Below are positions 20,295 through 50,599 of a stretch of 64,000 bases of DNA, in pieces. The notes beneath the pieces are model-generated. The model did no database searches and had not been told where the DNA came from. It worked only from the letters and a program-made list of their open reading frames with translations. How positions within the stretch are numbered: position 1 is the first letter of the stretch; each line of letters starts with the position of its first letter. Where the stretch lies: assembly GCA_035448065.1 (NCBI GenBank), contig DAOTIG010000002.1, positions 234-64,233 of the forward strand. The letters run 5' to 3'. The DNA is from Dermatophilaceae bacterium (GTDB taxonomy: Bacteria > Actinomycetota > Actinomycetes > Actinomycetales > Dermatophilaceae). The translations under genes and the position numbers were made by a program.

Positions 20295-20365
20295 GCGAGC
20301 GTAGCTCAATGGTAGAGCGCCAGCTTCCCAAGCTGGATACGCGGGTTCGATTCCCGTCGCTCGCT
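20295..20365 (+). tRNA. tRNA-Gly (anticodon CCC)
   Basis: Hand-folded cloverleaf: acceptor GCGAGCG/CGCTCGC, D arm GCTC-AATGGTA-GAGC, anticodon arm CCAGC-TTCCCAA-GCTGG, T arm GCGGG-TTCGATT-CCCGT, discriminator T. CCA is not encoded. Confidence 0.9.
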
Positions 20366-20376
20366 CCGATGGAGCA

Positions 20377-39057: not shown

Positions 39058-39360
39058 TCAGCTGATCTCCGCGATGGCCAGATGGCCGACGTCGAAGCTG
39101 AGCCCGGCGATCCGGCGAAGCTCCTCGATCGCTTCGGCGGAGATCGACATCGCCTGCCGACTGCTGTCGGCGCGGACGAAGAGGACCGCGCGAATCGGGT
39201 CGGCCAATGCGGCTCCAACTGACTCGCCGTCGGCCACATAGACGTGGCCGACCCGCGGGTCCGCGCGGGTGAGTCCCCGCAACTCGGCCGCCAGGGCCGA
39301 CCGGTCGGTGGACCGGTCAGCCCTGGCCGCGACATGCAGGGCGACCTCGACGGGGTACAT
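39058..39360 (-). CDS. Hypothetical protein (100 aa)
   Basis: The ORF has moderately high GC3, lower than the core genes. It lies 30 nt downstream of the small secreted-peptide gene on the same strand. No recognisable motif. Confidence 0.45.
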   Translation of the reverse strand: MYPVEVALHVAARADRSTDRSALAAELRGLTRADPRVGHVYVADGESVGAALADPIRAVLFVRADSSRQAMSISAEAIEELRRIAGLSFDVGHLAIAEIS

Positions 39361-39390: not shown

Positions 39391-39603
39391 TCAGCCCCGC
39401 GGCGCGTGCGGCGGCCACCAGATGACCAAGGCCCCCTCGCCGGGAGCCTTGGTCGCCGAACCGGCCTGCGCTGCGGGGACGAGCCCTCCCGTGAGCCCGG
39501 CTGCGAGCAGCGTCACGCCGAGCATGCGGGCACCGAGCCGCGCTCGGCGCGGCCGGGCGCCCCGGACGACGGCGGGCGACGAGGTGGAGATGGACATGGA
39601 CAT
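39391..39603 (-). CDS. Small secreted peptide precursor (70 aa; predicted mature peptide about 23 aa)
   Basis: Internal ATG preceded by GGAGG 7 nt upstream. MSMSISTSSPAVVRGARPRRARLGARMLGVTLLAAGLTGGLVPAAQA / GSATKAPGEGALVIWWPPHAPRG: an Arg-rich n-region, an h-region and an AQA cleavage site. Confidence 0.5.
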   Translation of the reverse strand: MSMSISTSSPAVVRGARPRRARLGARMLGVTLLAAGLTGGLVPAAQAGSATKAPGEGALVIWWPPHAPRG

Positions 39604-39845
39604 GACTGCCTCCGGGGAGAGTTGGGGGGAGGCCGAGCAACGCCCGGCCAGTCCACTCTCACGGCGCGCCGGGGTCCGGCGCCAGCGATTCGAGCGGCCG
39701 GGACGGGCCATGACAGCAACCGGCCACCCGGCATACCCGAACGTTCGCAAGACGGCGGTGAGTCGCCTCGCTCACCTCTGCGAAAGTCGACACAGAAAGC
39801 GCAAATACACTGTCGCCGAGAATCCTCTCTCCCCAGGGGGCCGGC

Positions 39846-40826
39846 GTGTTGCAGCTTTTCGGCGTGGGCGCGCAAACCGAGCGCGTCTACCGAGCGATGT
39901 TGGCGAGCACCGAGGCCGATGTCGGCCAGCTCGCCGATGAATTGGGCCTGACCACCGAGCAGACCGTCGCCGAATTGGATCGGCTGGCCCAGCTCATGCT
40001 CGTCGAGCCGGCCGGCCCCCCAAGCCACTACATCGCCGTCCCGCCCGACCAGGCGATCGAGCTGCTCATCGCCCAGGAGGAAGCCCGGCTGGCCGAGCGG
40101 CAGGCCGAGATGAAGCGCAGCCGGGCCGATCTGCACGACTACGTCGAGACCTTCGTCGAGAGCCGGGTGACCCGCGACGGCCTCGGCCTCATCGAGCAGA
40201 TCGACGACGGCTCGGTGGTCCGCAGCCGGCTCTATCAGCTGGTGCGCGACGCGACGTCCTCGGTGCTCGTGCAAATGCCCGGCGATGCCCTACCCGCCGA
40301 CGCGGTGGCGGCCTCCTCCCGGCTCGATGCGGCGGTCTTAGGTCGCGGGCTGCTCGTGCGCTTCCTCGTCTCCGAGGCGTCGGCGCGGGCGCCACATTGG
40401 CTCGATCATCTGCGGGCGCAATCGGTGCAGGGTGCCGTGATTCGCCTTCATCCGGCACCACCATTGCATTGCATCATCGTCGACCGGCATGCCGCGCTCT
40501 TGCCCCGTTCCGACTCGGCGGGGGCCTTTCTGCTGCGTGGTCACGACATCGTGCAGCCGATCGTCGCGCTCTTCGACGAGATCTGGCGCGACGGTGACCC
40601 GCAGCCCGGGCCGGACGACACGACCGGGAGCCTGGTCACCGAGGCCCGGCTCCGGCAGATCGTCACCCTGCTCGCTCAGGGACACAAGGACGAGGCCATC
40701 GGGCGCAAGCTCGGTCTGTCGGTCCGCACCGTGCGTCGCCTCGTGTCGTCGGCGATCACCGAGCTGCAGGCCGAGAGCCGGTTCCAGGCCGGCGTCGAGG
40801 CGGTCCGCCGCGGCTGGGTGAGCTGA
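39846..40826 (+). CDS. LuxR-family transcriptional regulator (N-terminal TrmB-like wHTH, C-terminal LuxR HTH)
   Basis: N-terminus: GAQTERVYRAMLASTEADVGQLADELGLTTEQTVAELDRLAQLMLV. C-terminus: LRQIVTLLAQGHKDEAIGRKLGLSVRTVRRLVSSAITEL. Confidence 0.8.
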   Translation: MLQLFGVGAQTERVYRAMLASTEADVGQLADELGLTTEQTVAELDRLAQLMLVEPAGPPSHYIAVPPDQAIELLIAQEEARLAERQAEMKRSRADLHDYVETFVESRVTRDGLGLIEQIDDGSVVRSRLYQLVRDATSSVLVQMPGDALPADAVAASSRLDAAVLGRGLLVRFLVSEASARAPHWLDHLRAQSVQGAVIRLHPAPPLHCIIVDRHAALLPRSDSAGAFLLRGHDIVQPIVALFDEIWRDGDPQPGPDDTTGSLVTEARLRQIVTLLAQGHKDEAIGRKLGLSVRTVRRLVSSAITELQAESRFQAGVEAVRRGWVS

Positions 40827-40995
40827 CCGATACCGGCCATGGCCGCTGCAGGCCAGCCAGGTCGCTCGGCCTGAGCCACTCGGTGTCCCTACCGTCGGTG
40901 ACACGCCGCGGACCTCGCGGTCACCCACACAGCGCGACGCCGGGGATCCCTCCTGGACCAAACCGGCGCCGCGTTGCCTACCCAAGGAGTCAATC

Positions 40996-41268
40996 ATGCT
41001 CAGCACCTCTCCCACCACCGGTCGGCGCCTCTTCTCGGGGCTGCTGGCCTCCATCGGTCTGGCCGTCGGCGCTGCCGCGACGCTCTACATCGCCGGCGCA
41101 TTCGGCCTCAGCAAAACCACCGCGGCGAACATCGTCCGGGCCTACGAGATCGGCGGGTGGGTCCTCACCGCGGCACTCGTGATCTTCTCGGCGGGCACCG
41201 CCGCGGCGCTGCTCGCGGTGATCCGCTACTTCATCACCCGGATGACCCGCGCCGCCCTGGTCGCCTGA
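40996..41268 (+). CDS. Candidate circular (head-to-tail cyclised) bacteriocin precursor, circularin A/uberolysin/AS-48-like
   Basis: AAGGAG (40984-40989) lies 6 nt before the ATG. 90 aa: MLSTSPTTGRRLFSGLLASIGLAVGAAATLYIAGAFGLSKTTAANIVRAYEIGGWVLTAALVIFSAGTAAALLAVIRYFITRMTRAALVA. By memory, it resembles circularin A (AGALGVQTAAATTIVNVILNAG...KQSMARAIAY) and the AS-48 GGWV segment. Confidence 0.55.
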   Translation: MLSTSPTTGRRLFSGLLASIGLAVGAAATLYIAGAFGLSKTTAANIVRAYEIGGWVLTAALVIFSAGTAAALLAVIRYFITRMTRAALVA

Positions 41269-41855
41269 TGACCAGTCCGACGGTCACGCCGGCCACGGCT
41301 GCCGCCCACGTCACGCCAGCGCGGCGCGGTCTATCGCTCGAGCTCCGCGCAGCGTTGGCCGGAGCGGTGCTGCTCGCCGTCGTCGGCGTGACCGTCGGCT
41401 ACGCCGCCTTCGTCCCGGAGTCGATGGCTGGTGACCCCGTCTTCGCCCTGGACGGCCGCTCGGCACCGGCGATCTTCGTGCAGATCCTCGGCCGGAACGC
41501 CGGCGCCGCAGGCCTGCTCGCCTCGGGCTACGTCACCTTCGGGCTGAGCTCCGTCGCGGCCATCCTGCTGACCTCAACGTGGATCGGTGCCACAGTCCAT
41601 GCACTCGCGGCCGGGCCGACGGTGGCCCTGTCCGCCCCCACCGTGCTCTACATCGTGGCCGAGTTCGTCGGCCTGCTGCTCGCCGCAACTGCTGGCCTGC
41701 TCGCGCCAGCAGCACACGTCCTCGCCGCCGCCAGCTCGGGCAACCGGCCGCGGCGAGACATCACGGGGAGCTTCCTGCGCCTGCTTCTCGCCGCTGCCGC
41801 CTGCATCGTGGGCGCGGCCGCCGTGGAGACCGCCGTCATCCTGTCCCGACTCTGA
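41268..41855 (+). CDS. Multi-TM membrane protein, DUF95/SpoIIM-like (circular-bacteriocin maturation candidate)
   Basis: Start overlaps the precursor stop (TGATG). 195 aa with about 5 TM segments and the segment IFVQILGRNAGAAGLL, reminiscent of DUF95. The position directly after the precursor matches cir and as-48 loci. Confidence 0.5.
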   Translation: MTSPTVTPATAAAHVTPARRGLSLELRAALAGAVLLAVVGVTVGYAAFVPESMAGDPVFALDGRSAPAIFVQILGRNAGAAGLLASGYVTFGLSSVAAILLTSTWIGATVHALAAGPTVALSAPTVLYIVAEFVGLLLAATAGLLAPAAHVLAAASSGNRPRRDITGSFLRLLLAAAACIVGAAAVETAVILSRL

Positions 41856-41869
41856 CCCAGGAGCCATCC

Positions 41870-42433
41870 ATGTCCTCGACCCTCAACCTCGCGGCCGAGC
41901 CGTCCATCGCGGCCAGCTCCGGCCGGCCGCGGTCGCCGCGCGCCCCCTGGCTCATCGCGTATGCCGCGTGCGTCCTCGCCGTCCTGGCTCGCGTTCCGAC
42001 CGTGGCGACCTCGATCCGCACCATGGTGGACGAGGCGATCGCCGCCGGCACGCTCACCGATACCAGCCAGCGCCCGCTCGCGGTGAGCGTCGGGGTGACC
42101 CTCGCCGTCGCGCTCACCTGCACCGCGCTGGCGGTCGTGGTCGTCGTCCTGCGGCGACTCGAGGGCCGGCTCCGCCTGCCCACCGTCACGATCGGATCCG
42201 TCCGGCGGGTGCCGGGTGCCCTCGTCGTGCTCGTCGTCGTCTGGATGGCCAAGCAGCTGGCAGGGGCGATTCGTCAGCCCACGAGTCCGCTCACCGACCC
42301 GGTGATGTGGTTGGCCGCGGCGGCCGGATGCGCCCTCGCGGTCCTGCTCGTGAGTCGGGCGGCCCCCACGGACGCCCGCCGTCGGGTCCTGGTCACCGCG
42401 CTGCCCCTCGGCGTCGTGCTCGCCGCAATCTGA
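41870..42433 (+). CDS. Membrane protein (187 aa, about 4 TM), accessory or immunity candidate
   Basis: CAGGAG precedes the ATG at 41870. Hydrophobic segments WLIAYAACVLAVLA, LAVSVGVTLAVALTCTALAVVVVVL, ALVVLVVVWMA, WLAAAAGCALAVLLV. Confidence 0.55.
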   Translation: MSSTLNLAAEPSIAASSGRPRSPRAPWLIAYAACVLAVLARVPTVATSIRTMVDEAIAAGTLTDTSQRPLAVSVGVTLAVALTCTALAVVVVVLRRLEGRLRLPTVTIGSVRRVPGALVVLVVVWMAKQLAGAIRQPTSPLTDPVMWLAAAAGCALAVLLVSRAAPTDARRRVLVTALPLGVVLAAI

Positions 42434-42443
42434 GGAATCCGAC

Positions 42444-42827
42444 GTGCTCGAGCGATATGTGGTGCGACTCACCCGGCCGGTCGCAGCGCTGGGCGTCAGC
42501 TGCCTGGTCGCCGCCGTCCTCCTTGCCCACCGCGCCCCGACCGCCGCCTTCCAGGCCTATCCGGGGCTGTGGTGGAGTGCGGTGGCCGTCGCCGCCGGGT
42601 CTCTCATCGCGCTGTTGGCCGCCGGGCCGCGGCTCGGTCTGCGGCTGCGCGTGATCGTGCTCAGTGTCGGCGGGCTCGCGGGCGCTGTGCTGACCGGCAA
42701 CGGCCTGCAGGACGGTGCAGGGCGGGTCCTGACCCTGGTCGCCGTCCTCACCATGCTCGCCTTGGCGGTGGCAGCGACCGTCGTGCTCCTCGAGCGAATC
42801 CAGCGCACGCCCGTCCGGAGGCTCTGA
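42444..42827 (+). CDS. Small membrane protein (127 aa, about 4 TM), immunity candidate
   Basis: GTG start 10 nt after the previous stop. Sequence: MLERYVVRLTRPVAALGVSCLVAAVLLA... Hydrophobic with cationic ends. Confidence 0.5.
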   Translation: MLERYVVRLTRPVAALGVSCLVAAVLLAHRAPTAAFQAYPGLWWSAVAVAAGSLIALLAAGPRLGLRLRVIVLSVGGLAGAVLTGNGLQDGAGRVLTLVAVLTMLALAVAATVVLLERIQRTPVRRL

Positions 42828-44392
42828 TGGCCAGACTGTGGCTGCCGGCCGTGCGCGCGGCTGTCGACATGTGGGCGGTGCGCGTCCTCACCGGCTTCGG
42901 CACGACGTTGTCCGCCCGGACCTTCGAGCTGCTCGTCCTGATCGCCGCCGTGGTGAGTCTTCCCCTCATCGCTGCAGGCACCCTGCTGGTCACCACCTTC
43001 GGTGCCGTCCTGATCGCCGACGGCAGGACGGCCGACCCGCAGGTGGTGGCCGGCCTGGGCGCTCTGGTCGTCGCCGGGTGCGGCTATCTCGGCGCGGTGG
43101 ACCTGGCGCGCACCCATCTCGGAAGGGCGGCATACGCCATCTCGGGCTCGCCGCTGCGCGGCATGTGGGTCGCGGCAGACATCCCCCTACCGATCGTCGT
43201 TCTCGTAGAGCGCGGTAGCGGCCTGGTCCACCGCGCGCTGAGCCAGTCGGCAGCGACGATCGGCGCGGCAGTGGGGGTCGCCCGGACCCTCGGGCCGACG
43301 GACTCCCACCTCCCCGTCCAGGATCTGCTCGCGTGTGCCGTCCTCGGGCCGGTGGCCTATGCCGCGGCCGGGCTGGCGCTGGCTCTCGCCCATGGGCGTC
43401 GCAGCGGGCCACGTCGCTCTGCGCGCTGGCCGGGGGTGGTCGCCCTGGTTCTCGGCGCCGGCGCCACAGGGGTGGCAGCTGCCCGGCTGCTCGCCGGGCC
43501 GGCGACCGACCGGCTGGCGACACCGTCCCTGCCGCTCACGCTGCTCGCTCAGCAGCTCGGACCACTGCGGCTGGGCCTGTCGGCGGCGACCATGCTCGCC
43601 ATCGGGGCCCTCGTCGTGGCGATCGCCGGGGGCACCCGGTTCCGAGCGGCCGCCCCAGCCGCCCCGATGCTCGCCCCGGAGCCTCGACGCTGCGCCCTGC
43701 CCTCCGGTGGTGGGCTGAGCCGACCCGTGGCGCTTGCGGGCGTGCTCTGGCGGGGCATCGGCGGAGCACGCGGAGTCGACGTCGCCACCCGGGTCGTGGC
43801 TGCACTGGTGGCGGTCACCCTCGCCGTCGTCGGGTGGCGGTGGGCCGGTGGGCCGGTGCTGCCGACCGGCGCGCGAGCGGCGGCCGCGGCTGCTCTCGTA
43901 TTCGTCGCGATCACCGTGGCCATGACGGTCAGCGCGGTGACCCTCATGCGACTGGGATTGACCCGATTGCTGTGGCAGCTGCGCGCACTGGCCGAGGCCA
44001 AGGTCCCGGCGCCGGCGATGTTCTGGGCCGTCGCGGCCCCCGCCCTCGGCTACGGCACGATCGCCGCCCTGGCCATCGCCGTCCTCGCCGTCGCGCTCGG
44101 AATCGGCCTGCCGACCGGCGCGATGCTCGCGATCGCAGCGACGATCGCCTCCGAGCACCTCATCGACGCCCTCTGCGCCCGCAGTGACGCCGGGGAGGGC
44201 CGCCGGGCCACCGACAGCGTTCTCGCGGTCCTCGGATTCGTCGCGCTCGTCCCCATCTACCTCCTGGGCGTCGCGCACGGATGGCCCGCGCACGCCGCGC
44301 TCGCCCTGCTCACCTGTCTCGCCGTCATCGGAGGTCTCGCATGCTTCGCGTTCCGTCTCCAGCGTCTGCCCGTCCGGCTCAGCCAGCCATGA
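42827..44392 (+). CDS. Large polytopic membrane protein (521 aa), CirB/As-48B-like in size and position
   Basis: Internal ATG overlapping the previous stop (TGATG, 42825-42829). At least 10 predicted TM segments, Ala/Leu/Val/Gly-rich. Confidence 0.6.
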   Translation: MARLWLPAVRAAVDMWAVRVLTGFGTTLSARTFELLVLIAAVVSLPLIAAGTLLVTTFGAVLIADGRTADPQVVAGLGALVVAGCGYLGAVDLARTHLGRAAYAISGSPLRGMWVAADIPLPIVVLVERGSGLVHRALSQSAATIGAAVGVARTLGPTDSHLPVQDLLACAVLGPVAYAAAGLALALAHGRRSGPRRSARWPGVVALVLGAGATGVAAARLLAGPATDRLATPSLPLTLLAQQLGPLRLGLSAATMLAIGALVVAIAGGTRFRAAAPAAPMLAPEPRRCALPSGGGLSRPVALAGVLWRGIGGARGVDVATRVVAALVAVTLAVVGWRWAGGPVLPTGARAAAAAALVFVAITVAMTVSAVTLMRLGLTRLLWQLRALAEAKVPAPAMFWAVAAPALGYGTIAALAIAVLAVALGIGLPTGAMLAIAATIASEHLIDALCARSDAGEGRRATDSVLAVLGFVALVPIYLLGVAHGWPAHAALALLTCLAVIGGLACFAFRLQRLPVRLSQP

Positions 44393-45021
44393 CCGCGGCC
44401 GCACTCGCCGACATCGTCGTCCTGGACGATGTCACCGCCGCCTACGACCCGGATCGGCCGGTGATCCGCGGCCTGACGGCGGGCATCGCCGCTCAGGGCC
44501 TGACCCAGGTGGCCGGTGGCAACGGCACCGGCAAGTCGACCTTCGTCGAGCTGCTCAGCGGCTACCTGTCACCGATCCAGGGCACAGTGACGGTGGCCGG
44601 CCAGCCGGCCGGCGCCCTCGCGGCACGTCCCTTGCGACGCATTGTGCGCACCACGCCGGCCCTCTTCGACCTGTTGACCGTGCGGGACCACCTCACGCTG
44701 TTCGCAACCGCCTACGGGATCCCGGTGGCCGGGCAGCTCGAACGCGCCTCGCGCCTGGGCCTGGCCCCATGGTTCGACGAGCACGCCTCGGGCTTGTCGT
44801 CAGGGACCGCGAAGAAGCTCTGGTACGTCATGTGCTCCGGCGGCCGGCCCCGCCTGGTCGTCCTGGACGAGCCATTCAACGCCGTCGATGCCGACGGCGT
44901 CGACACGATGGTCGACGAGATCACCGCCTGGGCGGCAGACAGCGCCGTGGTCCTCGTCGCCCACACCGTCCCCGCGCGCCTCGAGGTCGACCAGGTGCTC
45001 ACCTTGGGGGGACCGGCATGA
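44389..45021 (+). CDS. ABC transporter ATP-binding protein (short, 210 aa)
   Basis: ATGA overlap. Walker A GGNGTGKST, signature LSSGTAKKL, Walker B LVVLDEP. Confidence 0.85.
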   Translation: MTAAALADIVVLDDVTAAYDPDRPVIRGLTAGIAAQGLTQVAGGNGTGKSTFVELLSGYLSPIQGTVTVAGQPAGALAARPLRRIVRTTPALFDLLTVRDHLTLFATAYGIPVAGQLERASRLGLAPWFDEHASGLSSGTAKKLWYVMCSGGRPRLVVLDEPFNAVDADGVDTMVDEITAWAADSAVVLVAHTVPARLEVDQVLTLGGPA

Positions 45022-45983
45022 CGCCCCTCGAGCCGATCGAGGTCCGGGCCGTGGGGCTGACCAAGCGCTTCGGCGACCTGTCCGCCGTGCAGGACGTCTC
45101 GTTCACCGCCCCGGCCGGGGCCGTCACCGCACTGCTCGGGGGCAACGGGGCCGGGAAGAGCACGACGCTGCGTCTCATGCTCGGGCTCAGTCACGGCGGT
45201 GGGCGGACGACCTACGGCGGACGGCGGCTCGTGGACTGGCCCGCGGCATACCAGCAGGTCGGGATCTTCCTCGGGGCGCCGGCCTTCCACCCCGGGCGCA
45301 CTGCACGCGACCACCTCCGCGTCCTCGCCAGCGGCACCGCCATCGGCCGGGACCGCGTCGACGAGGTCCTCGCCGCGGTCGGGCTCGCCGCCCGCGCCAT
45401 GGACCGACCCCGCGGCTTCAGCACCGGCATGCGCCAGCGGCTCGGGCTCGCCGCCGCTCTGCTGGCCGACCCGAGCGTCCTCGTCCTCGATGAGCCGATC
45501 AACGGGCTGGACCCGCACGGCGTCATCGCGGTGCGCGAGCTGTTGGCCGCTCACGCCCGGCGAGGCGGGACGGTGATCCTGGCCAGCCACATCCTCTCCG
45601 AGGTGGTCCTGGTGGCCGATCGGGTCGTCATGGTCGCCGGTGGGCGGGTCGTCGGCGACTCGACGCTGGCCGACCTCCTGCAAACGAGCACTCGGGTCCT
45701 CGTGCGGAGCACCGAGCCGCATCGGCTGGCCGCGGGCTTGGATCGGGCCGGTGGGCAGTGCGCTGCCTCGACCAGCGATCCGGACGAGCTGGCCGTGAGA
45801 GGTCTCGACCAGCGGTCGGTCGCCGAGGTGGCCCGCGATCTCGGCATCCTCGTGTGGGAGCTCACCGCCGAGCGGTCCCTCGAGTCCGTCTACCTCGAGC
45901 GGGTCGGCCAGCCGGCCGGCGCTGCGGACAGCGTCCTCGATCACCACGCGCTCAGCGGAAGGACCGTCGATGTTGCATCATGA
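45018..45983 (+). CDS. ABC transporter ATP-binding protein (321 aa)
   Basis: ATGA overlap. GGNGAGKSTT, FSTGMRQRLGLA, VLVLDEP, ASHIL. Confidence 0.85.
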   Translation: MTPLEPIEVRAVGLTKRFGDLSAVQDVSFTAPAGAVTALLGGNGAGKSTTLRLMLGLSHGGGRTTYGGRRLVDWPAAYQQVGIFLGAPAFHPGRTARDHLRVLASGTAIGRDRVDEVLAAVGLAARAMDRPRGFSTGMRQRLGLAAALLADPSVLVLDEPINGLDPHGVIAVRELLAAHARRGGTVILASHILSEVVLVADRVVMVAGGRVVGDSTLADLLQTSTRVLVRSTEPHRLAAGLDRAGGQCAASTSDPDELAVRGLDQRSVAEVARDLGILVWELTAERSLESVYLERVGQPAGAADSVLDHHALSGRTVDVAS

Positions 45984-46698
45984 GCTGCGCAAGCTGCTGA
46001 CCTTGCGTTCGACCTGGATCTCGGCGACCGTCGCCTGCATCGCCTCCGCCGCCGTCGCGGCCCTGCTCGGGTGGGCATTCACCAGTCCTGAGCTCGGCTA
46101 CAGCGGGGACAGCCTCGGCCTGCTGCAGACTGTGGCCCGCACGACTGGCCCGAGCCTCTACTGTGCGGCCGTGCTGGGGGTGACCGCCGTGCGAGCTGAC
46201 ATCCGGGACGGCGTCGCCCGACTCACCCTGGTGCGGGAGCCGAGGCGTGACCGGGTCTGGGCCGCGAAAGCGGGCGCGACCGCCCTGCTCGCCGGCGCGA
46301 TCTGCCTGCTGTCCAGCCTCGCCGAGGTCGCTCTGGTCTGCGCCCTCTTCGATGCCGTGCCGGTTGCTGGCGGGCTGCGAGCGGTCGCGGTGCACACGCT
46401 CGTCGGCATGTCCTGGGCGTTGGTAGGCATCGCGCTCGGCACGATCATCGACAGCGTGCTGCCGGCGGTGCTCGCCGTGCTGGCGCTCCCACTGGTGATC
46501 GAGCCCCTCGTCACGGCCCTCGTCGGTGGACCCGTGGCCTGGCTGCCCTTCGCGTCCGGTCACACCGCCTATGCGCTCATCGGCGGCGACGTCGGACCCG
46601 GCGCCTCGGCCGGCGGCGCCAATCCAGCAGCCTTCCTGCTGTTCGTCGTCGGCCTGGCGGTGCTCGCCCTGCGACGGTTCCGGACTGCGGAGGTCTAG
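45970..46698 (+). CDS. ABC-2 type transporter permease
   Basis: MLHHELRKLLTLRSTWISATVACIASAAVAALL..., six TM-like segments. Overlaps the ATPase gene by 14 nt. Confidence 0.7.
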   Translation: MLHHELRKLLTLRSTWISATVACIASAAVAALLGWAFTSPELGYSGDSLGLLQTVARTTGPSLYCAAVLGVTAVRADIRDGVARLTLVREPRRDRVWAAKAGATALLAGAICLLSSLAEVALVCALFDAVPVAGGLRAVAVHTLVGMSWALVGIALGTIIDSVLPAVLAVLALPLVIEPLVTALVGGPVAWLPFASGHTAYALIGGDVGPGASAGGANPAAFLLFVVGLAVLALRRFRTAEV

Positions 46699-46789
46699 TC
46701 GTCCCAGACCGCGCCGGCGGACGAGGAAAGACCGACCGGCTCGAAGCGGCCGGTTCGGGACGCCGACTCTCGCGAGGCGACCTCGTGCG

Positions 46790-48163
46790 TCACCGAGGCG
46801 GCCCGGACTGCGCCGCGGCGACGCTGCCTGAGCCGCTCTCCGGTGAGCGGGCGGCATACAGCAGCGCGAGACCGGCGACGAGCACGCCGAACGACACGGC
46901 CGGCGTCACCTCGCCGACGAGGAAGAACTGCGGCCGGTTGCCGAGGACGTCGACGCCGACGATCGACACCATGAGGATGCCGAAGACCGTGAGCAGCACC
47001 CCGAGCACGGCGAGCGGGTCGACCCAGCGCGGCTGCTGCGTCGGTATGCCGCGGGCCCCCTTGGGCCCCGCGTCGAAGCGCACGAAGAGCGCCACGAGCA
47101 GCGCGGTGGGGACGGCCAGCACGAGGAACCACAGCGGCCGGCTCCACCACCACGAGGCCGTGCCGACCTCGGGCAGCCCGATGCCGAGCACCCGGGCCGC
47201 GAGGATGGTCAGCAGCAGGGCGGTGAGGTGCCAGAGGAAGGCGGTCATCGCGAAGGCGCCGGCGACCACGACGGCCCGCCAGACCCGGGGGCGCTCGAGC
47301 ACCCGGCGCATCGTGCCGCGCAGCAGCGCCGCGGCGCCGATGAGCGCGAGCCCCTGACACAGCAGGGCGAAGCTCGGCGGCGCCATGTTGGAGATCTCGT
47401 CACCAGGCAGGCCGACCATCGAGACCGGGTAGGGCCCGAGCGTCACCGCCGCGATCAGGCCGACCGCGCCACCGCCGAAGAGCACCCAGGCGATCTGCGT
47501 CGTCAGCCGGCCGTCGCGCCACGAGAAGCCGAGCTGGTGCAGGGCGAGCCAGACCAGCGCGAAGTTGAGGTTGCCGACCAGCCCGATCCCGGCGCCGAAG
47601 CGGATCAGGTCGACCAGTCCTGCAGCGACCACGAGGCCGAGCACGGCCCAGAGGCCGGCGCGGCGGTGCAGCCGAAGCATCGCCGGCGCGAAGGCCGCGA
47701 TGCCGAGGTAGATGCCGACGAACCACAGCAGCTGGGGCACCATGACGAGTGCGTCCCGGATGAGCCGGCCCTGCTCGCCGCGGGTCCAGCCGGCGAGGTG
47801 AGCGACCGCGCCGAGGATGACCCACACGACGAGGAAGGCGAGGGTGGGCCGCATCAGCCGGGCGGCCCGGGAGCGCACGAACGCGGCATACCCGATGGGG
47901 CGTTGCAGGGTGTGCGCGTGGGCGACGCCGCCGACGAGGAAGAAGAGCGGCATGACCTGCAGCACCCAGGTGACCGGCTGCAGGGCGGGAATCAGCGTGA
48001 GCGCATTGGTGATCTGGCCGTCCGGGGTGATCGCCACCATGAGCCAGTGGCCGAGCACGACGACGAGCAGCGAGCCCACGCGCAGGGTGTCGGCCCATCG
48101 ATCACGGTCGGCCGGCGTGGCCGCCGCCACGGCGGAGGCGGTCCGGGGGCGTTGCTCGGTCAC
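46790..48163 (-). CDS. Acyltransferase family 3 membrane protein
   Basis: DRWADTLRVGSLLVVVLGHWLMV near the N-terminus, followed by about 10 TM segments. This is the typical Acyl_transf_3 layout. Confidence 0.8.
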   Translation of the reverse strand: MTEQRPRTASAVAAATPADRDRWADTLRVGSLLVVVLGHWLMVAITPDGQITNALTLIPALQPVTWVLQVMPLFFLVGGVAHAHTLQRPIGYAAFVRSRAARLMRPTLAFLVVWVILGAVAHLAGWTRGEQGRLIRDALVMVPQLLWFVGIYLGIAAFAPAMLRLHRRAGLWAVLGLVVAAGLVDLIRFGAGIGLVGNLNFALVWLALHQLGFSWRDGRLTTQIAWVLFGGGAVGLIAAVTLGPYPVSMVGLPGDEISNMAPPSFALLCQGLALIGAAALLRGTMRRVLERPRVWRAVVVAGAFAMTAFLWHLTALLLTILAARVLGIGLPEVGTASWWWSRPLWFLVLAVPTALLVALFVRFDAGPKGARGIPTQQPRWVDPLAVLGVLLTVFGILMVSIVGVDVLGNRPQFFLVGEVTPAVSFGVLVAGLALLYAARSPESGSGSVAAAQSGPPR

Positions 48164-48232: not shown

Positions 48233-48496
48233 TCAGCGGGCGACCGGGCCGTCGTCCCGCCGCTCGACGTGCTCGACGTGCCCCTCCTCGATGTTGCGCC
48301 GCTCGACGACCGACGTGTGGGAGGTGTTGGCCCGCTGCTTGTTCATCGTCAGCGCCATGATGAGGGCGAGCACGCCGCCGCCCATCAGGATGTAGCCGAA
48401 CACGTCGAGGTTCTGCTTGACGAGCTGGTTGTCGATGTTGGTGAACGAGATGATCGCTCCCAGAACGAGCAGGAAGATCCCGAGACCAGCACCCAT
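48233..48496 (-). CDS. Small membrane protein (DUF6458-like)
   Basis: Internal ATG preceded by AAGGAG. Sequence: MGAGLGIFLLVLGAIISFTNIDNQLVKQNLDVFGYILMGGGVLALIMAL... Confidence 0.6.
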   Translation of the reverse strand: MGAGLGIFLLVLGAIISFTNIDNQLVKQNLDVFGYILMGGGVLALIMALTMNKQRANTSHTSVVERRNIEEGHVEHVERRDDGPVAR

Positions 48497-48589
48497 GTTT
48501 GTCTCCTTGTGTGGGTCGCGCGCTCGTGGCGCGAGTGTCTGGGCGGTACCCCGGGACAGCGCTTTCACCACGTCAAGAGCGCGGGCGAG

Positions 48590-50599
48590 TCAGCCGTGCC
48601 GTCCCTCGCGGGCCTCGTCCTGACGGGCCAGTCGGGCCAGCTCGTCGTTGTATGCCGCGAGCGCGGCATCCCCGTCACGGTCGGCCTGCCGGTCCAGCCG
48701 GCGGGCCTCGGCGGCGTCGGAGCGCACCCACTGCAGCACGACGATGAGCGCCAGGGCGAGTGACGGGACGTCGCCGATGCCCCACGCGATCGCGCCGCCG
48801 AGACGCTGGTCCTGCAGCGGATCGGGGATCCACGGGATGCCGATGATGCCGAAGAAGTCGGGGGCGATGAGGGTGTCGCCCGACTGCAGCGCGACGCCGA
48901 AGAAGGCGTGGAAGGAGATCGTCGCGAAGAGCACGACGAGCCGCAGCGCCGGTGCCCACTTGCGGGGGCCGGGGTCGACGCCGACGAGCACCATGGCGAA
49001 GAGATAGCCGGCGAGCAGGAAGTGGACGACCATCAGGATGTGCCCGGTGTGGGTCGTCAGCGCCAGCTCGAAGAGGCCGGTGTAGTAGAAGACGATGAGG
49101 CTGAAGGCGAAGTTGATGCCGGCGACGATCGGGTTGGCCCAGAAGGCGACGTAGCGGGAGTGCACGATGCCGAGGAGGATCTCGCGCGGGCCCAGGGTGC
49201 CGTCCTTGCGTGGGTGCTCGACCCGGATGACGAGGGTGAGCGGGGCCGCGAGCACGAGCAGGACCGGCGCGATCATCGCGATGGTCATGTGGCTCATCAT
49301 GTGCCAGGCGAAGGACACCCGGCCGTAGACACCGCCCGCCCCGCAGGTCGCCCAGAGCATGGCGACCCAGCCGAGGACCCAGCACACGGTGCGCCCGATC
49401 GGCCAGCGGTCACCGCGCCGGTGCAGCCGCACCACCGCCCCGATGTAGAGGGCGATGGCGAGGACGGCGACCGTGCCCCACAGCCAGTCCCAGCGCCAGA
49501 CGGTGAGCCAGGAGCTGCCGGTCGGCGCCGGGGGGATGGGGTAGTTCGTCAACGTCTCGGTGAGGTTGGCCGCCGGGGGGCGCACGTACTCAGGATTGGC
49601 GCTGCGGGACAGCGCGGTGGCCACGCCGACCGTGGCGCCCATGACCGCCAGCTCGGTGACCACGAGCCGCGCGAACAGGCCTGCGGCAGTGGGGTTCTCG
49701 CGTAGCTTGCCGATGACGTGCCGGCGCTGCTGCAGACCCAGCAGGCCGAGGACGACGAGGCCCACGGCCTTCGCGATGACGAGTGCGCCGTATGACGTGC
49801 GGAGGTCTCCCAGCCCCGACATGCGGACCGATGCGCTCACGATTCCTGACAGCCCGACGGTGACCAGCGCCCAGCCGGCGACGACGGAGTAACGGTCCAG
49901 GACGACCGGCAGCCAGGCTCGCAGCCGGGGCCGGAGAGCGACCAGGGCGGCCAGCCCGCCGATCCAGGCGACCGTGCCGACGAGGTGGAACAGGAGGGCG
50001 TTGACCGCGGTCTCGTGGTCGGCGGCGGTCGCCGAGTGACCGGCGAGGGCGAGCGGGAAGAGCGAGACCAGGCCGACGGCGCCGGCCCAGCACAGCGACG
50101 CGCGGCTGGTGCCGACGGCGGTGATCGTGACGGCGATCGCGGCGAGCAGGGCCGAGATGAGCCCCTCGCGCAGCGACTCCACCGACCAGACGAACTGCTG
50201 CAGCTGGCGCAGATAGGCGCTGCTCGTCGGGGAGAGCCCGACGATGTCGCCGAAGCCGAGGAGCACGCCGACCAGGCCGCTGGCGATCCACACGATGCCG
50301 GAGCGGACGGCGATCCGGGGCGCCGCGGCCAGCGCCTGCTTGGCTCGGTCCGGCACGGCGACGGCACCGAGCAGCAGCAGGCCGACAGTGAGCGCAGCCG
50401 ACAGGTCGTGCACGGCGCGGACGATCGGCAGCCCCCAGCGCACGACCGGCCCCGGGTCCTGCAGCCCGGCCACCGGCGGCTGGGTAGCTCCGCCCCCCGC
50501 AGCGGCGGCGACACAGGCGAGCACGGCGGCAGTGAGGGTGAGGACGGCGGCGGTGCGCGGCATACCGGATGAGCGGGCTGAAGTGGCAGCGAGGGCCAT
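48590..50599 (-). CDS. Fused CopD-like copper resistance / cytochrome c oxidase assembly (CtaG-type) membrane protein
   Basis: 669 aa with about 14 TM segments. The N-terminal half is CopD-like (many His in TM loops). The C-terminal half is caa3_CtaG-like (WHMMSHMTIAMIAPVLLVLAAP, HFLLAGYLF). Confidence 0.8.
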   Translation of the reverse strand: MALAATSARSSGMPRTAAVLTLTAAVLACVAAAAGGGATQPPVAGLQDPGPVVRWGLPIVRAVHDLSAALTVGLLLLGAVAVPDRAKQALAAAPRIAVRSGIVWIASGLVGVLLGFGDIVGLSPTSSAYLRQLQQFVWSVESLREGLISALLAAIAVTITAVGTSRASLCWAGAVGLVSLFPLALAGHSATAADHETAVNALLFHLVGTVAWIGGLAALVALRPRLRAWLPVVLDRYSVVAGWALVTVGLSGIVSASVRMSGLGDLRTSYGALVIAKAVGLVVLGLLGLQQRRHVIGKLRENPTAAGLFARLVVTELAVMGATVGVATALSRSANPEYVRPPAANLTETLTNYPIPPAPTGSSWLTVWRWDWLWGTVAVLAIALYIGAVVRLHRRGDRWPIGRTVCWVLGWVAMLWATCGAGGVYGRVSFAWHMMSHMTIAMIAPVLLVLAAPLTLVIRVEHPRKDGTLGPREILLGIVHSRYVAFWANPIVAGINFAFSLIVFYYTGLFELALTTHTGHILMVVHFLLAGYLFAMVLVGVDPGPRKWAPALRLVVLFATISFHAFFGVALQSGDTLIAPDFFGIIGIPWIPDPLQDQRLGGAIAWGIGDVPSLALALIVVLQWVRSDAAEARRLDRQADRDGDAALAAYNDELARLARQDEAREGRHG

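Follow-up and report, generated by a model that had tools for sequence, protein, structure and literature searches.

A predicted AS-48-type circular-bacteriocin gene cluster in a Dermatophilaceae actinobacterium

To our knowledge, all experimentally characterized circular bacteriocins come from Firmicutes. The clusters that encode them are defined by a precursor, a DUF95 protein and a protein that binds ATP (Xin et al. 2020, PMC8534725), of which the DUF95/SpoIIM protein is described as class-defining for circular bacteriocins (PMC11580447; PMC8659200) and absent from leaderless linear bacteriocins (PMC11580447; PMC8534725). For the class as a whole, the step of cleavage and cyclization still lacks an explanation (PMC8534725; PMC8659200). 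A survey of precursors listed 6,925 from Firmicutes versus two from Actinobacteria (Xin et al. 2020, PMC8534725), and the cluster of one of these two, from Mycobacterium abscessus, is at least 85% identical to the amylocyclicin cluster of Bacillus (PMC8534725). In 2023, an AS-48-like cluster was predicted in silico in Arthrobacter sp. APC 3897 (Mar Drugs, PMC10456417). Long-leader circular bacteriocins are also established, with pumicyclin A carrying a leader of 32 amino acids (aa) in front of a core of 64 aa (PMC13463998). Here we analyzed a 64,000-nucleotide stretch of contig DAOTIG010000002.1 from a Dermatophilaceae bacterium (the window), in which eight adjacent genes (named g1 to g8) probably constitute a cluster for a head-to-tail cyclized bacteriocin of the AS-48 or long-leader type that is native to this actinobacterium. 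We base this reading of the sequence on the homology of the precursor, on the gene content (SpoIIM/DUF95, two ATPases and an ABC-2 permease) and on the conservation of the cassette. The closest characterized system is AS-48.

The locus spans positions 40996-46698 and consists of eight open reading frames on the + strand, which are co-directional, in frame and tightly coupled (Table 1); all coordinates and junctions given for them in an earlier note, made from the letters of the window, held. Briefly, TGATG junctions connect g1 with g2 and g4 with g5 (41266-41270 and 42825-42829), and ATGA junctions connect g5 with g6 and g6 with g7 (44389-44392 and 45018-45021). The g7 and g8 genes overlap by 14 nucleotides (nt) at 45970-45983, and the same overlap recurs in two related loci (L011 and L008). 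A ribosome-binding site, AAGGAG at 40983-40988, lies 7 nt 5' of the ATG of g1.

Table 1 Features of the predicted bacteriocin cassette and of the region directly upstream of it (TM, transmembrane; HTH, helix-turn-helix; ABC, ATP-binding cassette).
Feature	Position	Strand	Basis or remark
Transcriptional regulator, 326 aa	39846-40826	+	C-terminal LuxR/GerE-type HTH, weak N-terminal TrmB-like HTH
Intergenic leader/promoter region	40827-40995	+	AAGGAG site and imperfect inverted repeat
g1, 90-aa predicted circular-bacteriocin precursor	40996-41268	+	TIGR03651 and PF09221 matches
g2, 195-aa polytopic membrane protein, predicted SpoIIM/DUF95 family	41268-41855	+	By orthology
g3, 187-aa basic membrane protein, ~4 TM segments	41870-42433	+	Hydropathy, conservation
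g4, 127-aa basic membrane protein, GTG start, 4 predicted TM segments	42444-42827	+	Conservation
g5, 521-aa polytopic membrane protein, ~10-12 TM segments	42827-44392	+	Orphan actinobacterial family
g6, 210-aa stand-alone ABC ATPase	44389-45021	+	PF00005
g7, 321-aa ABC ATPase, DrrA / lantibiotic-protection type	45018-45983	+	PF00005, TIGR03740, DrrA
g8, 242-aa six-TM predicted ABC-2-type permease, partner of g7	45970-46698	+	Orthology

The resemblance of the g1 product to circular bacteriocins, which the earlier note had proposed, was borne out by the Pfam and NCBIfam searches, though at scores under the curated cut-offs. The top NCBIfam match is TIGR03651 (E 1.3e-5, 25.5 bits versus a curated cut-off of 30.7) and the top Pfam match is PF09221 (E 0.006, 17.2 bits versus 23.6), in which residues 33-89 of g1 cover positions 1-65 of the 67-position profile. 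Twelve further homologues with 59-80% identity were identified, several of them labeled 'circularin A/uberolysin family circular bacteriocin' by JGI. TIGR03651 was matched by all 13 homologues scanned and PF09221 by 12 of the 13, with the same top match throughout. The best TIGR03651 score among the relatives scored individually belongs to a more distant cassette precursor and falls just short of the same cut-off (30.2 bits). These sub-threshold scores fit the label given by NCBI, where the exact g1 peptide is a hypothetical protein of a Dermatophilaceae metagenome-assembled genome (MAG). Furthermore, when the g1-family profile was searched against all sequences of the PDB, AS-48 was the sole match (E 0.0086).

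The precursors were aligned by MAFFT together with those of AS-48, Listeria innocua and B. thuringiensis, which were taken from annotated plasmids. The alignment is colinear through the leader, the core and the C-terminus, and the segment E-x-GGW is shared (YEIGGW aligned with VEAGGW). The known cleavage site of AS-48, H-1|M1, aligns on Y31|I32 of g1, and the C-terminus of AS-48 (...AVIAW) aligns with that of g1 (...AALVA). Residues 1-31 (40996-41088) are thus predicted as the leader and residues 32-90 (41089-41265) as the core. The 31-residue leader has a positive N-region followed by a hydrophobic stretch, like the 35-residue leader of AS-48. Across the g1 family the first ten residues are variable, while T29, Y31, I32, A33, G34 and the final three positions never vary; the homologues share an aromatic residue (Y/W) at -1, a hydrophobic residue at +1 and the invariant C-terminus. 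The predicted core, I32-A90, has 59 residues, an isoelectric point of 10.9, a net charge of about +3.8 and a grand average of hydropathy of 1.15, and it begins with Ile and ends with Ala. With its start taken from the alignment, it falls within the description of the class, namely 58-70 residues, hydrophobic, cationic (subgroup I) and with hydrophobic residues at both ends. The computed average mass of the cyclized core is 6067.15 Da, with a monoisotopic mass of 6063.40 Da; rings that begin at Y31 or T29 instead would have 6230.33 or 6444.59 Da, and each ring is 18 Da lighter than the corresponding linear peptide. In the 41071-41088 region, a conserved small-x-Ala motif situated three residues ahead of the predicted core looks like a site for signal peptidase I, and a removal of the leader in two steps, by a cut after A28 and a subsequent loss of T-L-Y, is possible.

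The product of g2, encoded next to the precursor, is by orthology a predicted SpoIIM/DUF95 protein. Positional orthologues in the related loci are 37-52% identical to the window protein (~53% for that of L011), and six of the eight match PF01944 (SpoIIM/DUF95). Four of them exceed the gathering score of 26.9 bits (L008, 34.8; L011, 32.0; L020, 30.1; L009, 28.9), and the matches span positions 2-161 of the 163-position profile. Two residues, E132 and E187, are invariant. A direct profile link between the g2 family and three Firmicute SpoIIM proteins was sought and dropped, as the hhalign alignments were colinear but non-significant and the hidden Markov model of the g2 family gave at most 6 bits; the assignment of g2 thus rests on the Pfam SpoIIM model. 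The earlier note had tied its proposal to g1 having a circular-bacteriocin family match or g2 being a DUF95 protein, and both appear to hold: g1 has the profile matches described above, and orthologues of g2 match SpoIIM/DUF95.

The largest product, g5, had been described as a polytopic membrane protein of CirB/As-48B size. The likeness of g5 to As-48B-type proteins is confined to length (521 versus 556-568 aa), to topology and to the occurrence of both within their clusters, and no homology was detectable. BLASTP against As-48B returned an E-value of 2.6, and hhalign of the 16-member g5 family against the B proteins of As-48, B. thuringiensis and Listeria returned nothing. No Pfam family was found in a scan of 16 family members. 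In an exhaustive HMMER search of 1.84 billion protein representatives, the g5 family comprised only 18 clusters, all of which are Ala-rich and nearly lysine-free, a composition typical of high-GC Actinobacteria; the named relatives belong to Intrasporangium sp. and a Dermatophilaceae MAG. Word-indexed searches had found two proteins each for g2 and g5, since Ala-rich words saturate the candidates, and the families were gathered through gene neighborhoods and the exhaustive search of representatives.

Two loop motifs of g5 are conserved in all 16 aligned relatives, SxSPxRGLWxAxDIPLxxVVxxERG at residues ~106-130 and GQxxRLWHYRxLWExG at residues ~377-393. Each has an R-(G)-L-W element together with one invariant Glu (E128 and E390, respectively), and no known catalytic signature was recognized in them. 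Relatives of g5 with identities down to 23% reside in the same cassette. Among the loci inspected, the sole exception to this co-occurrence is the most divergent relative (~22% identical; L019:6118-8698), which is accompanied by a g4-sized gene and one ABC ATPase, without a recognizable precursor or SpoIIM gene. It lies ~1.5 kb downstream of a gene for a 540-aa DsbB-domain protein, with a two-component system just downstream. It is possibly a remnant, or else a locus where the g5 family serves another purpose.

Of the three transporter genes, the ATPases g6 and g7 are clear, as the earlier note had read them (PF00005, E 1.2e-13 and E 2e-24, respectively), and the ABC-2 permease that it had listed is recovered by orthology. 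In the tblastn comparison with the as-48 locus on plasmid pPD1, the best match of g6 is at the as-48D position, and that of g7 is the ATPase of the as-48EFGH block. We predict g6 to be a production ATPase of the As-48D/CirD type. The NCBIfam matches of g7 are TIGR03740, 'lantibiotic protection ABC transporter ATP-binding subunit' (E 1.4e-48), and DrrA (E 5.7e-39), both under the equivalog cut-offs. The g8 product has six hydrophobic segments, and two of its five orthologues match ABC2_membrane_2 (best E 3.7e-7), by which it is predicted as an ABC-2 permease through orthology only. Position, size and charge make g7-g8 a candidate self-protection exporter. The same features mark the two small proteins, g3 and g4, as accessory or immunity candidates. 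Both are basic multi-TM proteins conserved in all loci; g3 occupies a position like that of As-48C1, and g4 carries an invariant G-N motif at residues 85-86 and has no family match in Pfam or NCBIfam. A Yip1 assignment of g3 (E 0.0019 for the window protein) was dropped, for it recurred in only one of eight orthologues.

The cassette was surveyed by neighborhood look-ups and tblastn. The same eight genes in the same order are present in the window, L001 (a 3.2-Mb contig), L004/L007 (an uncultured Actinomycetota MAG), L006 (an Intrasporangium sp. MAG), L008 and L011, and the shorter contigs L009 and L010 keep this order as far as they reach. Three further loci (L017, L018 and L020) contain the same cassette around g5 relatives of 31-23% identity, and their precursors keep W/Y at -1, a hydrophobic residue at +1, GTFGL and EVGGWAL. 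In total, ~10 independent actinobacterial loci share the gene order while differing in their flanks. The ratio of nonsynonymous to synonymous substitution (dN/dS), calculated from two independent pairs, is 0.24-0.55 for all eight genes and lowest in g1, indicating purifying selection on all eight genes that is strongest on the precursor. The arrangement is thus more than chance, because the same eight genes recur in the same order in these independent loci with such dN/dS values. A pattern scan of GTDB found two loci in 185,579 species genomes, a scan of JGI metagenomes also found two loci, and a scan of a plasmid collection found none. Either members of the cassette family are scarce in these collections, or the pattern captures a narrow range of them.

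The composition of the locus also bears on its origin. The GC content at third codon positions (GC3) is 0.86-0.91 across the eight genes versus 0.87-0.97 in two measured neighbors (the upstream regulator and an acyl-CoA dehydrogenase), in agreement with the native-looking GC3 noticed earlier, and the GC profile over the locus has no island-like dip. A recent transfer from Firmicutes was considered and rejected, because GC3 is like that of the measured neighbors and the accessory proteins are actinobacterial in composition in every relative. A movement of the cassette within Actinobacteria is plausible, since the flanks differ between loci and the cassette of L001 lies near an rve-type transposase. 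In that locus (L001:7097-9566), the cassette has no upstream regulator and starts ~1.7 kb downstream of the transposase gene (LZ_Tnp_IS481 and rve domains); an acetyltransferase gene and two DUF6916 genes also precede it, and a LuxR-type two-component system follows it.

A gene for a 326-aa regulator precedes the cassette in the window. Its Pfam matches are GerE (E 3.6e-5) and HTH_23 (E 7.9e-7). Homologues with ~30% identity are located directly upstream of the cassette in L004, L009 and L010, a homologue lies downstream of it in L006, and a 16-residue match (94% identical) to the C-terminus of the regulator was found at the contig edge of L011, so that most loci have a TrmB/LuxR-type regulator homologue alongside the cassette. 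On the evidence of these neighborhoods, the HTH regulator is predicted to be part of the cassette, in addition to the eight genes, and is likely the pathway regulator. Between this gene and g1, an imperfect inverted repeat has arms of 14 nt each (40930-40943 and 40963-40976) that are 86% complementary and spaced by 19 nt, and it ends 7 nt 5' of the ribosome-binding site of g1. The repeat (40930-40976) could be an operator, a 5'-untranslated-region hairpin or a chance occurrence in GC-rich DNA. A scan of the region 39500-47500 detected neither a sigma-70 consensus promoter nor an intrinsic terminator, the sigma-70 consensus being a poor guide to actinobacterial promoters.

Collectively, these results can be arranged into a model of how the locus may work. 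The LuxR-type regulator upstream would control the operon, and g1 would be made as a 90-aa precursor that the 31-residue leader, as delimited by the alignment, brings to the membrane. Homology places the cut of the leader at or near Y31|I32, after which I32 would be joined to A90 to give a 59-residue, cationic and very hydrophobic ring. By analogy and by their strict co-occurrence, g2, g5 and g6 may form a membrane complex which matures and exports the peptide, corresponding to C, B and D of the as-48 and cir clusters. Self-protection would be provided by g3 and/or g4, together with the g7-g8 exporter, which may expel the peptide from the producer's own membrane as As-48EFGH does. Judging from its family, the released peptide would permeabilize the membranes of competing Gram-positive bacteria. 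We also considered a bolder version, in which the circular bacteriocins of this cassette form an actinobacterial lineage of their own, independent and vertically maintained. The orphan g5, found alongside the precursor down to 23% identity, would then be the membrane component long sought for leader removal and/or ring closure, working jointly with SpoIIM/DUF95 and the small ATPase; this we regard as a speculative and rather unlikely extension.

Several observations weigh against the assignment of the locus to circular bacteriocins. The score of g1 stays under both curated cut-offs, g2 and g8 of the window have no Pfam match on their own, and g5 is without similarity to As-48B-type proteins detectable by BLASTP or hhalign. 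The start of the core is not exactly fixable, as the profile registers give residues 31-33, and the conserved small-x-Ala motif (A/T/G/S, any residue, Ala) at residues 26-28 would permit a signal-peptidase cut after A28. In AlphaFold2 predictions, the full precursor forms long helices (predicted local distance difference test, pLDDT, 73) and not the compact four- or five-helix saposin-like fold, and the core alone forms one helix over residues 9-58 (pLDDT 82.7); these extended helices were taken as uninformative because the alignments are shallow (12-13 closely related sequences). Finally, no protease or ligase motif is recognizable anywhere in the locus, and the known circular-bacteriocin clusters are likewise without a recognizable cyclase, protease or ligase.

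Part of this evidence would suit an AS-48-like peptide that undergoes processing without being cyclized, the leader acting as a Sec-type signal cut by signal peptidase I and the product being a linear saposin-like bacteriocin or a membrane-associated peptide. Such a peptide would account for the n-h-c signal-peptide layout of the leader, for the small-x-Ala motif conserved three residues before the predicted core, for a cluster with no recognizable ligase or protease and for AlphaFold2 models without a compact fold uniting the termini. We nevertheless regard it as improbable, because the literature describes a SpoIIM/DUF95 gene in direct coupling with the precursor as a class-defining trait of circular bacteriocins which leaderless linear bacteriocins lack (PMC11580447; PMC8534725), because the core ends IAG and LVA are both invariant, as expected if both are recognized, and because the missing cyclase is a trait of the known circular-bacteriocin clusters as well.

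It is more improbable still that the locus is a transporter or envelope-stress module with g1 as a small integral membrane subunit, whose similarity to bacteriocins would come from a hydrophobic, Ala/Gly-rich composition. In its favor are the up to three hydrophobic segments predicted in g1, the profile scores of g1 under the curated cut-offs and the lack of an own family assignment for five of the eight proteins. Against it, the matches of g1 are colinear, near full-length and in one register in three independent models (TIGR03651, PF09221 and AS-48), and they involve the specific motifs FG and E-x-GGW, not composition alone. The gene set of precursor, DUF95, small ATPase and second ABC exporter is the defining set of circular-bacteriocin clusters, and no gene of the cassette is more conserved than the precursor. 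We give the least credence to a silent relic, intact in sequence and no longer expressed or functional. The failure to find a consensus promoter, which would suit a relic, means little with a sigma-70 scan in Actinobacteria, and the rarity of the family in the GTDB and JGI scans is set against eight intact reading frames and an intact regulator, a conserved translational coupling and the low dN/dS values. The reading as a native circular-bacteriocin cluster keeps its place as the probable one.

The surroundings of the locus are ordinary housekeeping genes, with an acyl-CoA dehydrogenase gene upstream; downstream, a convergent gene encodes an Acyl_transf_3 protein and is followed by those for a DUF6458 protein and a CopD-CtaG fusion. 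The fusion (48590-50599, - strand) has 669 aa and combines a CopD copper-resistance domain with a Caa3_CtaG cytochrome oxidase assembly domain; the small DUF6458 protein adjoining it is encoded at 48233-48571. Between the acyl-CoA dehydrogenase and regulator genes, a 100-aa open reading frame (39058-39360, - strand) has no Pfam match and is possibly no real gene in this GC-rich DNA. A tRNA-Gly(CCC) at 20295-20367 is the sole Rfam/ARAGORN match in the window.

If functional, the locus would extend the class to Actinobacteria and provide a new, very hydrophobic 59-residue scaffold. It would also offer a comparison set for the membrane proteins that carry out leader removal and ring closure, in which SpoIIM/DUF95 and the ATPase, unlike the B-like protein, are shared with Firmicutes. 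Among relatives of this family, Tetrasphaera and other Dermatophilaceae close to it have been reported as phosphate-accumulating bacteria of wastewater plants, and if the source MAG shares this habitat, the peptide could influence competition there. We found no literature linking circular bacteriocins with Dermatophilaceae, Intrasporangium or Tetrasphaera.

In comparison with AS-48 (as-48ABCC1DD1EFGH on Enterococcus faecalis pPD1, NZ_KT290268.1, L012; also known as bacteriocin 21), both precursors have a long hydrophobic leader (35 aa versus 31 here), and their colinear cores share the motifs FG and E-x-GGW as well as a C-terminal helix that is basic. Both loci encode SpoIIM/DUF95, a polytopic protein of more than 500 aa, a stand-alone ATPase of ~210 aa and a second ABC exporter, the latter here a predicted one. 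However, the identity of the precursors is only ~22%, and the core here has 59 residues instead of 70, ends with Ala instead of Trp and is preceded by Tyr instead of His at -1. The gene order is A-C-x-x-B-D-G-H, unlike the A-B-C-C1-D-D1-EFGH of as-48, and g5 is without detectable As-48B similarity. The locus has neither a 56-aa D1-type immunity peptide nor an As-48F-like adaptor (annotated on pPD1 as 'efflux RND transporter periplasmic adaptor subunit'), its predicted self-protection permease is of the ABC-2 type, unlike that of as-48, and it is chromosomal, high-GC and actinobacterial.

Other described systems resemble the locus in different respects. The circularin A/uberolysin family (TIGR03651, PF09221 Bacteriocin_IId) provides the best matches of g1 and its homologues, which cover nearly the whole profile and remain under the cut-off. 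Pumicyclin A (PMC13463998), likened here by its description, is close to g1 in the lengths of its leader and core, and its compact cluster likewise includes an ATPase and a protein of the SpoIIM type, but it comes from Bacillus, is experimentally proven and is encoded by a six-gene cluster. Cerecyclin (cyc) of Bacillus cereus (PMC8534725) has the same inventory of precursor, membrane protein B, DUF95, ATPase, small immunity protein, Yip1 multi-TM protein, ABC transporter and regulator. It differs in its Firmicute origin, and its Yip1 assignment does not carry over to g3, with one weak match in eight orthologues.

The Arthrobacter sp. APC 3897 cluster is likewise actinobacterial and predicted in silico, with a precursor, DUF95, ATP-binding proteins and an immunity candidate. 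By its description, it is set apart by a precursor 71.3% identical to AS-48 and a ten-gene as-48 layout, whereas the locus studied here has ~22% identity, an order of its own and its own accessory proteins. Since this cluster (PMC10456417) and two precursors in the survey of Xin et al. (PMC8534725) had been predicted before, and JGI already names homologues of g1, the suggestion in the earlier note that an actinobacterial locus would in itself be new was overstated. In conclusion, the locus probably represents a separate high-GC lineage, equipped with accessory proteins of its own, within the known class of circular bacteriocins, and no new kind of system.

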